Assembly (NCBI GenBank): GCA_020632655.1
Contig: JACKFD010000002.1
Location: forward strand, 227,757-291,756
Reading direction: 5' to 3'
Source: Spirochaetaceae bacterium
GTDB lineage: Bacteria > Myxococcota_A > UBA9160 > UBA4427
DNA: 64,000 nt
Positions within the stretch are counted from its first letter, which is position 1, and every line of letters begins with the position of its first letter. Under the pieces are notes generated by a model. It saw nothing but the letters and a program-made list of their open reading frames with translations, searched no databases and was not told the DNA's origin. Both the position numbers and the translations under genes were made by a program. Shown here one piece after another: positions 7,202-10,345 of this stretch.

Positions 7202-7484
7202 CGACGGCCTCCGGATCCGGTTCCTTCCCGCCGCCGCCCCGCTCCTCGGCGAGCCCGGCTGGCGAGGGAGAGCCACTTGTCGAAGCGAGCCACGCCGCAT
7301 CCGTCCGCCCACGTCCACGGGCCGGGCTGTGACCACGACCACGATCATCATCACGACCACGGCCACGCGCACGGGGGCCCGGCGCCCTACGTCCGGAGCG
7401 AGCCCAAGATCCAGCGCAACGATCCGTGTCCCTGCGGCAGCGGCAAGAAATACAAGAAATGCCACGCACCGAACGGCTGAGGCG
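7202..7484. repeat. Segmental duplication copy 1 (leader + SEC-C mini-gene); partner at 9995-10301
   Basis: By-eye alignment: cgacggcc.ccggatc.ggttccttcccgcc...gccccgctc...gagcccgg...gagggag...tgtcgaagcgagccacgccgcatccgtccgcccacgtccacgg... through ...aacggctgaggcg. Similarity stops 4 nt after the stop codon. Confidence 0.85.
7277..7480 (+). CDS. His/Asp-rich SEC-C motif (SecA-type zinc knuckle) mini-protein, copy 1
   Basis: 67 aa. The C-terminal [16 protein letters not shown] is the SEC-C metal-binding motif. The N-terminal tract is [23 protein letters not shown]. No in-frame ATG/GTG lies near the conserved N-terminus, so TTG 7277 behind GAGGGAGAG is the best start. Confidence 0.65.
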
Positions 7485-7543
7485 CGCGCGGGGCTCGGGG
7501 GCGAGAGAGAGCTCGATTCGAATCCTGCGATGCCCGCGCCGGC

Positions 7544-8392
7544 TCAGGCCCGCGGGCCGATCTCCGGATCGACCGTGCAGCGTCGCATCACCCGCCGTGC
7601 CGGGTAGTGATCCGGTAGCGCGACGTGCAACGTACAGCGCTCGTCCCAGATCGCGAGATCGTCGACGCGCCATCGCCAGCGCACGCAATGCTCGGCCCGA
7701 TCGACGAGGCTCCAGAAGAAGTCGAGCCACATCCGACTCTCGGCCGGGTGCAGACCCACGATCTTCGTGATCGTCGCGGCGGAGAAGTAGAGGACCTTCT
7801 CGCCCGTGTCCGGGTGACGGACCACGAGCGGATGCTCCGTCGTCTGTGACACGGTCGCGCGGAGCACGTCCGCGATCTCCTTGCCGGCGGCGAGCTCCGC
7901 GCCGCGGAAGAACTGCTCCCCGGCGTCGTGCAGGGCGATGAGGCCCTCGACCCGTTCCCTCATGGGCAGAGAGAGCGCGCGATAGGCGGCCGTCAGGCTC
8001 GACCACATCGTGTCGCCCCCCGTCTCGGGCAGCAGGCGCGCCGAGAGGATGCCGATCTTCGGTGGCACGGGGAGCCAGGTCAGGTCCGAGTGCCATCGGG
8101 TCGCCTTGGGCGGGCTCTGCTCGTCGTCCTCGATGAACTCGACGTGCGCGCCCGTTCCCTTCGCCCGCGACGTCGGATGGATCGTGAGCGGGCCGAAGCG
8201 CCGGGCGAAGTCGAGGTGCTGCGCGTCGGAGAGGGGCTGGTCGCGAAGGAAGAGCACCTGATGCCGGAGCAGGGCCTGCTGGAGCGCGTCGAAGGCTTCG
8301 TCCGGGAGCGGCTCGCGGAGGTCGATGCCTCCGACTTCTGCGCCGATCGCCTTCGTGAGCGGCGTGATCCGGAGCGTCGAGCCCGTCGTCAT
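7544..8392 (-). CDS. TauD/TfdA-family Fe(II)/2-oxoglutarate dioxygenase
   Basis: 282 aa with the family pattern LRITPLTKAIGAEVGGIDL...RWHSDLTWLPVPPKIGILSA (HxD)...IWDERCTLH. The ATG overlaps the upstream stop as ATGA (8389-8392). Confidence 0.9.
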   Translation of the reverse strand: MTTGSTLRITPLTKAIGAEVGGIDLREPLPDEAFDALQQALLRHQVLFLRDQPLSDAQHLDFARRFGPLTIHPTSRAKGTGAHVEFIEDDEQSPPKATRWHSDLTWLPVPPKIGILSARLLPETGGDTMWSSLTAAYRALSLPMRERVEGLIALHDAGEQFFRGAELAAGKEIADVLRATVSQTTEHPLVVRHPDTGEKVLYFSAATITKIVGLHPAESRMWLDFFWSLVDRAEHCVRWRWRVDDLAIWDERCTLHVALPDHYPARRVMRRCTVDPEIGPRA

Positions 8393-9153
8393 CGCGGTGC
8401 GTCGCCATCGATCGCGACGCGATGGCCACAGCGCCGCGCGTCACCGAAGTCGTTGTCGACACGATGCTGGGTGCAGCGATTGTCCCAGAAGGCGATGTCG
8501 CCGCTCCGCCATGCGTGACGCACGGTGAACTCGTCTCGGGTGGCGTGCGCGAGCAGCGAGGCGAGCAGGGCGTCGCTCTCGACCTCCTCGAGCTCGACGA
8601 TCCGCTTCGTGAAGATGCCGTTCACGAAGAGCGCCTTGCGGCCGCTCTCCGGATGCGTGCGCACGACGGGATGGATGCTCTCCTCGACGGGCTGCCACCA
8701 GCTGCGGTGCAGCGCATGCAAGCCATCGATCCGCGCCTTCGTATCGGCATCGAGCGCCTCGTAGGCCGCCGTCATGCTCGCCCACCAGGTATCACCGCCC
8801 GCCGGAGGTGCGATCACCATCTGCAGCATCGCCCCCATCGGCGGTCGCGGCGAGCACGTCACGTCCGTATGCCACCACTCGGCCGTGACCGCCTTGCGGT
8901 CCGTGTCGAAGACGACGACCTCGGGCTGCTCGGGCAGCGCATCGAGGGCGGCATGCGTCTGGAGCTCGCCGAAGACACGGCCGAGTCGGACCTGCTCTGC
9001 CGGCGAGAGCCCCGCCTCCGGAAAGAAGAGCACCTCGTGACGCAGGAGTGCGTCGCGCAGGCGGGACGCATCGGCAGGCTCGAGCGGCGCGCGCAGGTCG
9101 AGGCCGCTCACGACGGCGCCGAGCGCTGCGGACTCCGGGGTGATCGTCAGCAT
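8389..9153 (-). CDS. TauD/TfdA-family Fe(II)/2-oxoglutarate dioxygenase (second paralog)
   Basis: ATG 9151-9153 follows AGGAG. The 254-aa product contains MLTITPESAALGAVVSGLDL...WWHTDVTCSPRPPMGAML...FWDNRCTQH. The ORF-track N-terminal 80 aa was rejected as junk. Confidence 0.85.
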   Translation of the reverse strand: MLTITPESAALGAVVSGLDLRAPLEPADASRLRDALLRHEVLFFPEAGLSPAEQVRLGRVFGELQTHAALDALPEQPEVVVFDTDRKAVTAEWWHTDVTCSPRPPMGAMLQMVIAPPAGGDTWWASMTAAYEALDADTKARIDGLHALHRSWWQPVEESIHPVVRTHPESGRKALFVNGIFTKRIVELEEVESDALLASLLAHATRDEFTVRHAWRSGDIAFWDNRCTQHRVDNDFGDARRCGHRVAIDGDAPR

Positions 9154-9623
9154 GTGGAATCTCCTCGTTCGCGTGCGGGACGGTAGTCCGGTCGGCCCCG
9201 CGGATCTCCCCCATCGTAGACCTGTCGATCGAGCGTCTGGATCTCGTCGAGCCTCGCGAGCCAGGGGAGACGCGAACGACACCAGGCCTGGGCCACGGGC
9301 ACGAGTCGCGCCTTCTGTCGTACCGCCCCACCGGAGATCGAGACCGGAAGCGAGGCATCGTGCTCGTCCGTACCGTAGAGCTGCGTTCCACACGCCTCAC
9401 AGAAATGCATGGCCCTCCTGGCCCCACTCTCGGCGGTCTTGACGTAGCGGCGCGGACTGCCGCGCGTCACTCGGAAGCGATCGGGTGAGGCGAGGATCCG
9501 GACCCGGAAGGGCGCACCCGAGAAGATCTGACAATCCTCGCAATGGCAGAGGAAGGTCTGTCCCTCGTCGATCTCGGCCTCGAAGGCGACCGCCCCGCAA
9601 TGACATCGACCGTCGATTCGCAT
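9147..9623 (-). CDS. GFA/CENP-V family (glutathione-dependent formaldehyde-activating-like) zinc protein
   Basis: MRIDGRCHCGAVAFEAEIDEGQTFLCHCEDCQ...HFCEACGTQL carries the characteristic Cys clusters. It is the first gene of the minus-strand GFA-TauD-TauD unit and overlaps the next start by 7 nt. Confidence 0.8.
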   Translation of the reverse strand: MRIDGRCHCGAVAFEAEIDEGQTFLCHCEDCQIFSGAPFRVRILASPDRFRVTRGSPRRYVKTAESGARRAMHFCEACGTQLYGTDEHDASLPVSISGGAVRQKARLVPVAQAWCRSRLPWLARLDEIQTLDRQVYDGGDPRGRPDYRPARERGDSTC

Positions 9624-10066
9624 GACTCACGACTCCCATCCATCCCACCCGGAGCCATGGGGGCTCCGGCTTCACGTGACCGGTCGAAGGTGGGCGCGCT
9701 GCGCCGGGCGGGATCGGCTCGCTTCAGGATGCCTCAGGCGTCGGGGTACGCGCGAGCCACTCGAGCGACCCGGGTCGAGACCCGGTGCCGGTGCGCGGAG
9801 GCGTGTCTGGCCGCTCGCGGCGGATCCGGAGCGGACTGTCGACTTCCTCGAGCGGTCGGTGGCGCGATCCGTGGCGGATGGGTCGCCACGCATGCGCCCG
9901 GCAGCCGGGACGCACGTCCCCCCGGCGTCTCGGGCTCGGCGACGGACGCCGGGCCCGGTCGCGCCCGGGCCGCCTACGGGACGCGCTCGCGCGCCGACGG
10001 CCCCCGGATCGGGTTCCTTCCCGCCGCCCCGCTCCGCGGGGAGCCCGGCGAGGGAGGAAGATCCAT

Positions 10067-10297
10067 CTGTCGAAGCGAGCCACGCCGCATCCGTCCGCCC
10101 ACGTCCACGGCCCGGGCTGTGATCACGACCGCGACCAGGATCATCACGACCACGACCACGACCACGACCACGACCACGACCACGCGCCCGGCGGCCCGGT
10201 GCCCTACGTCCGGAGCGAGCCCAGGATCCAGCGCAACGACCCTTGTCCCTGCGGCAGCGGCAAGAAGTACAAGAAATGCCACACGCCGAACGGCTGA
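10067..10297 (+). CDS. His/Asp-rich SEC-C motif mini-protein, copy 2
   Basis: 76 aa: ...[32 protein letters not shown]...[16 protein letters not shown]. The position homologous to the copy-1 TTG is CTG 10067, 9 nt after GGAGG. There is no in-frame ATG/GTG, so the start codon is uncertain. Confidence 0.55.
10145..10180 (+). repeat. (CACGAC)6 hexanucleotide microsatellite encoding (HD)n inside SEC-C copy 2
   Basis: Six perfect CACGAC units were read directly, followed by CACGCG. Copy 1 has only an irregular equivalent. Confidence 0.95.
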
Positions 10298-10345
10298 GGC
10301 GATCGCGCTCGCACGAGCCGCACTCCCGCCGTCCGCAGCGTCGGC

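Follow-up and report, generated by a model that had tools for sequence, protein, structure and literature searches.

A SEC-C mini-protein gene duplicated around a GFA-TauD-TauD operon: two paralogs with TTG and CTG starts and a His/Asp tract of changing length

The stretch of DNA analyzed here, hereafter the window, comprises 64,000 nucleotides of contig JACKFD010000002.1 from a metagenome-assembled genome (MAG) labelled Spirochaetaceae bacterium (GCA_020632655.1), and it is part of the NCBI MAG contig JAWKRU010000001.1 (1.47 Mb). It carries on its plus strand two small genes, copy 1 (7277-7480) and copy 2 (10067-10297), which are paralogs of each other and lie on either side of a three-gene operon encoded on the opposite strand. 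Each of these mini-genes encodes a protein of fewer than 80 residues that joins a His/Asp-rich tract to a SecA-type SEC-C zinc knuckle. Our preferred reading, to which we give a probability of about 0.6, is that the two mini-genes are functional paralogs of a gene for a stand-alone small cytosolic metal-binding protein, that they arose by local duplication, and that their adjacency to the operon is incidental. The genetics of the two copies is solid, whereas their biochemistry is inferred.

Pairwise alignment confirms that the duplicated unit is the gene together with about 75 nt of 5' leader, as the initial annotation had claimed. Similarity at the DNA level starts at about 7202 and 9995 and ends at about 7490 and 10307, i.e. 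4-10 nt past the stop codons. Outside both boundaries, the two regions show 62 matches per 100 nt, compared with a random mean of 62 (standard deviation 3). The leaders themselves (7202-7276 in copy 1 and 9995-10066 in copy 2) are 86% identical with one 3-nt indel, and identity reaches 96% over the first 18 codons and 93% over the last 36 codons. In copy 1, the Shine-Dalgarno sequence GAGGGAG (7264-7270) precedes a TTG start codon and a frame of 67 amino acids (7277-7480, including the stop), and in copy 2 the corresponding sequence GAGGGAGG (10050-10057) precedes a CTG, at the position homologous to the TTG of copy 1, and a frame of 76 amino acids (10067-10297, including the stop). When the window was searched with the leader motif, the leaders of the two copies were the only matches, and a degenerate search for NDPCPCG returned exactly two sites in the 64 kb, one in each copy, where 0.03 would be expected by chance. 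The copy 1 protein is present in NCBI as a 'SEC-C domain-containing protein' (P0001, three accessions). For copy 2, a 76-residue gene has been called at the same position in the public record, and an exact look-up of its product in the protein collection, starting with either M or L, gave no match. A scan for promoters and terminators found no sigma-70-like sites, and terminator-like signals only on the minus strand, within coding sequence.

Both proteins combine the two parts that had been proposed for them. The copy 1 protein starts with a short basic N-terminus, followed by HVHGPGC and the His/Asp tract, a linker, and the SEC-C domain (residues 47-65, nt 7415-7471), which in copy 2 occupies residues 56-74 (nt 10232-10288). 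Pfam SEC-C (PF02810) matches copy 1 with 46.2 bits (E 3.8e-12) and copy 2 with 43.9 bits (E 2.1e-11), both well above the gathering score of 20.4 bits, and the His/Asp tracts of both copies read as previously quoted. The ligand pattern C-x-C-x8-C-[HC], with a conserved Ser and a conserved Tyr between the ligands, is found in both copies, and the knuckle is identical in 18 of 21 residues to the zinc-domain peptide of Escherichia coli SecA (1SX0, E 3.5e-8). In an AlphaFold2 model of copy 1 made with the family alignment, residues 1-35 are of low confidence and residues 38-67 are confident, with a predicted local distance difference test (pLDDT) score of 73-89 in the knuckle; such a prediction fits an intrinsically disordered N-terminal half and a C-terminal mini-domain. 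Metal binding is the natural reading of these sequences.

Neither copy has a canonical start codon at its N-terminus, and the nearest one in frame lies 114 nt upstream in copy 1 and 189 nt upstream in copy 2. The non-ATG starts behind Shine-Dalgarno sequences of the GAGGGAG type that had been proposed hold for both copies, with the TTG at 7277 placed 6 nt after its Shine-Dalgarno sequence and the CTG at 10067 placed 9 nt after its own. The short reading frame is settled by the homologs. In 37 aligned family members, the HVHGP motif is preceded by 4-35 residues, in most of them by 10-14, homolog N-termini from many phyla match the short frame (e.g. MSKRAPDHVHGPGC and MSKPNRPTDAGHVHGPGC), and several homologs start MSK, exactly where L-S-K stands in the two copies. 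The short N-terminus is thus upheld against a longer conserved one beginning at an upstream ATG. Longer N-terminal frames, starting from an in-frame GTG at 7163 or from the ATG that precedes copy 2 by 189 nt, were considered and rejected; what they would add is rich in Arg, has no counterpart in the other copy outside the duplicated unit, and is found in none of the homologs. A TTG start is also used in the orthologs L009 and L010, in which no alternative start exists for 126 and 1341 nt, respectively, and it is probably the start in L003 too, although an ATG sits 9 nt upstream there. In more distant family members the start codon is ATG.

The second copy is real. Five independent assemblies contain it (the window's MAG, GCA_035399405.1, GCA_020430525.1, JGI 3300010349, and JGI 3300009779), and both copies with the operon between them are found on three contigs, namely the window's, L214 (GCA_020430525.1), and L216, with GCA_020430525.1 and JGI 3300010349 among their sources. 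An assembly artefact, which had been set out in advance as a finding that would refute the duplication, is therefore excluded. The copy 1 sequence with its TTG is unchanged in L214, L215, and L216, and the TTG is kept in every assembly examined. The CTG of copy 2 stands in identical sequence in four assemblies, and the fifth differs. In GCA_020430525.1, which is 99.4% identical to the window over 8.5 kb, the segment corresponding to 10064-10084 of the window has TAC in place of CTG, and the ACG codon of Thr5 has become ATG, which moves the start 15 nt downstream and leaves a protein of 71 amino acids. A replacement, T73A, and a single synonymous change are further differences of this allele. 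The coding sequence of copy 2 is thus conserved and its start is still evolving, and we read the changes at the start as selection on dosage rather than decay.

Outside the tract, the two copies are separated by 6 synonymous changes and 3 replacements, all of them conservative (A/V, K/R, A/T). With a synonymous divergence (dS) of 0.18, a nonsynonymous divergence (dN) of 0.026, and an omega (dN/dS) of 0.14 (binomial p 0.008), the pair has been under purifying selection since the duplication, as averaged over both copies and the whole time since. The nearest ortholog, L009, is roughly equidistant from both copies (dS 0.61 and 0.52). Since the copies are much closer to each other than to L009, the duplication is younger than the split from the L009 lineage. 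Copy 1 is probably the parental gene and copy 2 the derived one, because a 15-nt block just upstream of the paralog boundary, TGCCGGCCCTCGACG, is common to copy 1 and L009; it is absent from copy 2. Relative to copy 1, the HD tract of copy 2 is nine codons longer, its Shine-Dalgarno sequence is stronger, and its start codon differs.

It is unlikely that copy 2 has been silenced or is decaying, having lost its translation together with its TTG start. Such a fate might be suspected from the CTG in place of TTG, from the lack of any canonical in-frame start for 189 nt, and from the finding that the start region is the sole polymorphic spot, with one strain having TAC at the start codon. However, the open reading frame (ORF) of copy 2 is intact in all five assemblies, and the low omega with its uniformly conservative replacements speaks against decay, although this signal is averaged since the duplication and is not separable between the copies. 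The Shine-Dalgarno sequence of copy 2 has been kept and even strengthened (GGGAGGAAG). Moreover, the very allele that lacks the CTG has gained an ATG five codons downstream, which is the pattern expected under selection for expression.

The His/Asp tract is encoded by codon repeats in both copies. Tandem Repeats Finder (TRF) detects an imperfect period-6 repeat (GACCAC, 6.2 copies, 77% matches) at 7331-7367 of copy 1 and a period-6 array at 10124-10184 of copy 2, within which the perfect (CACGAC)6 reported earlier, encoding (HD)6, lies at 10145-10180. The initial annotation had regarded this microsatellite as a slippage-prone way to tune the length of a metal-binding tail. One part of this proposal stands. 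Tract length and module number vary widely across the family alignment and copy 2 gained nine codons, and thus slippage has acted over evolutionary time. The other part does not, given that the length of (CACGAC)6 is identical in the five assemblies at the level of their consensus sequences. The HD tract therefore changes length over evolutionary time, but not detectably within the population.

The two copies share their features with a large set of small proteins. A family search returned 245 clusters at E<=1e-3, with lengths of 51-98 amino acids, and members come from Myxococcota, Nannocystis, Pseudomonas and its relatives, other Gammaproteobacteria, Hyphomicrobiaceae, and Leptospira. The architecture is constant. 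After a short, variable N-terminus come one or two HVHGPxC(D/N)HDH modules accompanied by an H/D/G run that varies, then a short linker of the form PYVRxEPK or EPVRNxLK, and finally a near-invariant knuckle ending in (Y/F)KKC(H/C), which in nearly all aligned members lies within 2-6 residues of the C-terminus. Both copies can be aligned over their full length with 35 homologs and have a length of 50-100 amino acids, an HVHGPxC module, and a C-terminal SEC-C domain like the rest of the family. H12, H14, G15, C18, H20, H22, and the segment from R47 to C62 are invariant or near-invariant in the alignment. NCBIfam holds no model dedicated to this mini-protein family, and a search of the PDB found no solved structure beyond the SecA and YchJ knuckle peptides. 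A metagenome scan with the copy 1 protein, from which 80 loci were kept, recovered nearly exclusively SecA C-termini and at most a few mini-genes (L024 and probably L044).

We propose that a piece of about 300 bp, containing the leader, the Shine-Dalgarno sequence, and the coding sequence, was duplicated in this lineage and landed beyond an unrelated GFA-TauD-TauD operon. The knuckle would fold around a single Zn(II) or Fe(II) ion held by Cys-x-Cys-x8-Cys-His, in the manner of SecA, YecA, and YchJ, and the His/Asp/Cys tract would bind several further divalent ions with lower affinity. This small protein may in turn buffer, store, or donate metal, and the near-invariant basic residues of the knuckle that are not ligands, which in the isolated SecA domain allow binding to SecB and the ribosome, probably dock it on one of these partners. 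Pairing a strong Shine-Dalgarno sequence with a weak start codon, which is TTG in the clade and CTG in copy 2, would set a modest and tunable dose, and the HD tract lengthens or shortens by slippage of the codon repeat. SecA-like metal-binding domains (MBDs) are known to bind not only Zn or Fe but also SecB and ribosomes, and their ligand pattern with the conserved Ser and Tyr has been described (10.1101/613315). The E. coli SecA MBD on its own, in the form of SUMO-MBD, cosediments with ribosomes (PMC6620043).

Several observations weigh against the reading of the mini-genes as functional metal-binding paralogs placed next to the operon by chance. Literature searches with the family names and the HVHGP motif returned nothing relevant and no characterised member of the family. 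No metal transporter or regulator adjoins the mini-gene among the members examined, and within 1.5 kb upstream of it at 54 Pseudomonas loci no Zur-like boxes were found; a search of the same loci for Fur-like boxes gave two poor matches, one of them inside coding sequence, and neither convincing. Docking on SecB or the ribosome is predicted from the conservation of the sequence. Copy 2 may be expressed very little, because CTG is a poor initiator. Finally, the adjacency to the operon is kept in all assemblies of this species, and a local functional link between the mini-genes and the operon is possible.

A second account of the mini-protein would make it chiefly a free SecA-MBD decoy or regulator, competing with the MBDs of SecA, YecA, and the methionine aminopeptidase type for SecB or the ribosome, with the His tract sensing metal or redox state instead of storing metal. 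The non-ligand residues of the knuckle are near-invariant over phyla, which implies a conserved macromolecular partner, and published work has shown that the isolated MBD binds ribosomes and that MBD binding relieves SecA autoinhibition (10.1101/613315, PMC6620043). However, no contextual link to sec genes was seen in any locus examined, and the presence of the same His module on bona fide metallochaperones points to metal handling. We consider a primary role as decoy or regulator improbable; it overlaps with the role of metal buffer, store, or donor that we favor and differs from it in emphasis only.

The His module deserves attention in its own right, since HVHGPxC(D/N)HDH is a portable appendage found on many unrelated proteins. 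Among the first 120 genomic matches listed for this motif (loci L094-L213), mini-proteins account for 63. The module stands at the C-terminus of ORFs with a trigger-factor signature in 23 further matches (one Pfam-confirmed; e.g. L097, L102, L111), at the C-terminus of a 96-amino-acid Pseudomonas protein in 12 (e.g. L112), and at the C-terminus of ORFs with a UreE signature in 6 (one Pfam-confirmed; e.g. L096). Two matches lie in the linker of CobW-type GTPases (one Pfam-confirmed; e.g. L098) and two at the N-terminus of ORFs of more than 700 amino acids, which are putative P1B-type ATPases (L104, L195). The remaining 12 include FKBP26 (L144), DUF1292 (L117), and a putative histidyl-tRNA synthetase (L131).

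Trigger factor binds at the ribosomal exit tunnel. A bolder and quite unlikely idea is that a free knuckle docking on the ribosome or SecB, combined with the portable multi-metal module shared with trigger factor, might provide a labile pool of Zn, Ni, or Fe at the exit site for co-translational metallation, or might couple secretion and chaperone traffic to metal status. If true, this would be an undescribed way to hold labile metal at the ribosomal exit site or to couple secretion and chaperones to the metal status of the cell. A widespread family of tiny proteins pairs a metal module that UreE and CobW also use with the knuckle of SecA, itself able to bind ribosomes in isolation. The TTG, the CTG, and the TAC with its new ATG also form a natural set of alleles for studying how weak starts set the dose of a protein.

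The leader copied with the mini-gene had been suggested to be a shared regulatory element, and this suggestion finds no support. Leader divergence between the paralogs is 14%, compared with a synonymous p-distance of 0.16 in the coding parts; since the leaders have thus diverged at the synonymous rate, no extra constraint is needed to explain their likeness. The leader of L009 can be aligned over about 110 nt, and those of more distant orthologs cannot be aligned. Rfam gave no family match for the leader even at E<=10, save one at chance level, and RNAalifold on three leaders, a comparison of low power, found compensatory changes in none of the 28 consensus pairs. For the copy 2 leader alone, a hairpin is predicted in which UUCCUUCCC pairs with the Shine-Dalgarno sequence (-51.9 kcal/mol, z -2.15 against shuffles), and this fold is not predicted for the leader of copy 1 (z 0.14) or of L009 (z +1.87). 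As a structured RNA, the leader was thus abandoned as a candidate after Rfam, RNAalifold, and single-sequence folding had given nothing consistent. That it acts as a cis-regulatory RNA for both genes, either metal-responsive or sequestering the Shine-Dalgarno sequence, is very unlikely. The stable hairpin formed by the pyrimidine tract of copy 2 (GUUCCUUCCC) with the Shine-Dalgarno sequence would favor such a role, as would the fact that both elements are recognisable in L009. However, the copy 1 and L009 leaders fold no better than shuffled sequences, and neither covariation, nor an Rfam family, nor alignable leaders in distant orthologs lend it weight. A ribosome-binding site surely lies within the leader, and perhaps a promoter does too.

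The operon between the copies lies on the minus strand. Its first gene encodes a GFA-family protein of 158 amino acids (9147-9623, Pfam GFA E 7.7e-27), and its second and last genes encode TauD-family Fe(II)/2-oxoglutarate dioxygenases of 254 amino acids (8389-9153, Pfam TauD E 3.4e-61) and 282 amino acids (7544-8392, Pfam TauD E 3.9e-64, with a gene call in L001). The GFA and TauD genes overlap by 7 nt and the two TauD genes by 4 nt, and because of these overlapping stop and start codons we regard the three genes as one operon. The two TauD proteins are 36% identical to each other. The TauD gene at 7544-8392 is convergent with copy 1, and the GFA gene is divergent from copy 2, from which it is separated by an intergenic region of 443 nt. 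Gene calls and Pfam thus agree with the initial annotation on an opposite-strand GFA-TauD-TauD operon flanked by mini-genes in the same orientation. The identical GFA protein (P0121) is found on 17 public contigs. A foreign origin of the operon was also considered and rejected, as its GC content of 69% shows no anomaly against the 71-73% of its flanks.

In the loci surveyed outside this species, the mini-gene and the operon do not occur together. We fetched 75 stretches around mini-genes, mostly through a motif scan with one genome per species and not all independent of one another. A TauD or GFA homolog was found near the mini-gene in only 2 of these 75 stretches, both from this species (L001, L002), and it is likewise only in this species that two mini-genes occur at one locus. 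At seven homolog loci with gene calls the neighbours are unrelated, and across 13 non-Pseudomonas loci no neighbour family is conserved except in pairs of close relatives. Conversely, all five GFA-TauD stretches that were inspected (L224-L228, from related metagenomic contigs and representing three GFA orthologs of 70-76% identity) lack a mini-gene, as judged from the HVHGP and SEC-C motifs in any frame. In all five the GFA ortholog is clustered with one to three TauD genes, usually together with Amidohydro_2, which makes the GFA-TauD pairing a conserved unit. L224, with its GFA and TauD genes, and L009, with the nearest ortholog of the mini-gene, derive from the same JGI sample and are on different contigs.

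The Pseudomonas loci comprise L004-L006 and about 50 others. Eight Pseudomonas-type loci were checked, and in six of them only 3-8 nt separate the mini-gene from a LEA_2-family gene upstream of it. In L004-L006, a DUF2489 gene follows the mini-gene, and a YchJ-like SEC-C protein is encoded about 1 kb upstream. This arrangement looks like a conserved operon unrelated to TauD and GFA.

The initial annotation had inferred that the mini-proteins serve the flanked metalloenzymes in metal buffering or as chaperones, and had named missing co-occurrence in related genomes as a reason to give this up. In the stretches surveyed outside this species, co-occurrence is missing in both directions, and the mini-gene does not accompany GFA and TauD as a dedicated accessory would. 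It is highly improbable that the mini-proteins serve the flanked GFA (Zn) and TauD (Fe) enzymes as dedicated metal buffers or chaperones, even though every assembly of this species has the same arrangement, the enzymes belong by Pfam to metal-dependent families, and SecA-like MBDs bind Zn or Fe (10.1101/613315), since the survey of both loci, the separate contigs in the sample of the nearest relative, the opposite strands that preclude co-transcription, and a mini-gene neighbourhood that differs in each lineage all stand against it. The absence of TauD/GFA co-occurrence outside this species instead suggests that the copies came to surround the operon by a local accident of duplication. The eye-catching pair around a metalloenzyme operon is thus a lineage-specific duplication and not a conserved system.

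A few other features of the window may be recorded. At 15677-15907 on the plus strand lies a Cys-rich ORF of 76 amino acids (beginning MTRCAHANCYCDLDESAAMDGYCSPYCANAG) that matches nearly the whole prokaryotic metallothionein profile PF02069 below threshold (E 0.099). It is about 330 nt from a gene for a ferritin-like protein (14925-15347, minus strand, PF00210 E 1.6e-12), and by its sequence it may be a second small metal-binding gene nearby. An apparently intergenic segment at 24677-24802 contains three tandem copies of a 37-nt unit, CCCGGGGCTGCTTCGCACCGACGCACGCGGGACCGAG, two of them perfect. A direct repeat of 58 nt, 84% identical, is found at 37085-37142 and 53872-53929, 16.8 kb apart (CGGRTCCCGAATCACGC...GAACGTGCGCGC...). 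Families of GCC/GCCGCC-rich direct repeats (D1, D3) at 1727-2662 probably encode, on one strand, a low-complexity segment rich in Gly, Ala, and Pro. Public labels of the organism disagree. The proteins of the MAG are filed under 'Spirochaetaceae bacterium', the cluster of the identical GFA protein in the nr database under 'Myxococcales bacterium', and the sister MAGs with the closest homologs of the mini-gene under Myxococcota; at a GC content of about 70%, the Spirochaetaceae label is doubtful.

The mini-proteins can be compared with several known systems. Among characterised proteins, the MBDs of SecA, YecA, and YchJ are nearest by homology, and the Hpn and Hpn-2 paralogs of Helicobacter are nearest by analogy. 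With the C-terminal MBD of SecA (PF02810; PDB 1SX0/1SX1, 1TM6, 1OZB) they have in common the CxCx8CH ligands, the Ser and Tyr, and the flanking basic residues. They differ from SecA, YecA, and YchJ in consisting of little else than the knuckle and the His/Asp tract, without the ATPase core, the UPF0149 domain, or the YchJ middle domain. Indeed, neither copy belongs to YecA (UPF0149) or YchJ: Pfam detects SEC-C only in both of them, and the YecA and YchJ equivalogs of NCBIfam match only their last 20-40 residues, at 28-44 bits compared with cut-offs of 140-158. His-rich tails are also known from metallochaperones (the C-terminus of UreE, the linker of CobW/COG0523, and the tails of SlyD and FKBP), and UreE, CobW, and FKBP26 proteins of other genomes contain the same HVHGPxC(D/N)HDH module. 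In UreE, CobW, and FKBP, however, the module is appended to an enzyme or chaperone domain, whereas the mini-proteins consist of the module and a 20-residue knuckle only. Hpn and Hpn-2 of Helicobacter, which bind nickel (PMC4671568), are likewise tiny cytosolic His-dominated proteins that form a lineage-specific paralog pair with a presumed function in metal storage or sequestration. Hpn-type proteins have neither the SEC-C knuckle nor the HVHGPxC module and appear to share no sequence homology with the mini-proteins, and the likeness is one of analogy and not of membership. The family matches that were named or fetched, like the matches in the PDB, included nothing resembling Hpn, in searches made without a direct comparison. 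Of the same kind as the mini-proteins are those that NCBI calls 'SEC-C (metal-binding) domain-containing protein' or 'zinc chelation protein SecC', such as those of Pseudomonas taeanensis and Nannocystis exedens, which have the same architecture and length. The mini-genes described here belong to this annotated but uncharacterised family. What the present locus contributes to it is a diverged second copy, a start position that reads either CTG or TAC, the latter together with a new ATG, and the expansion of the tract to (HD)6.

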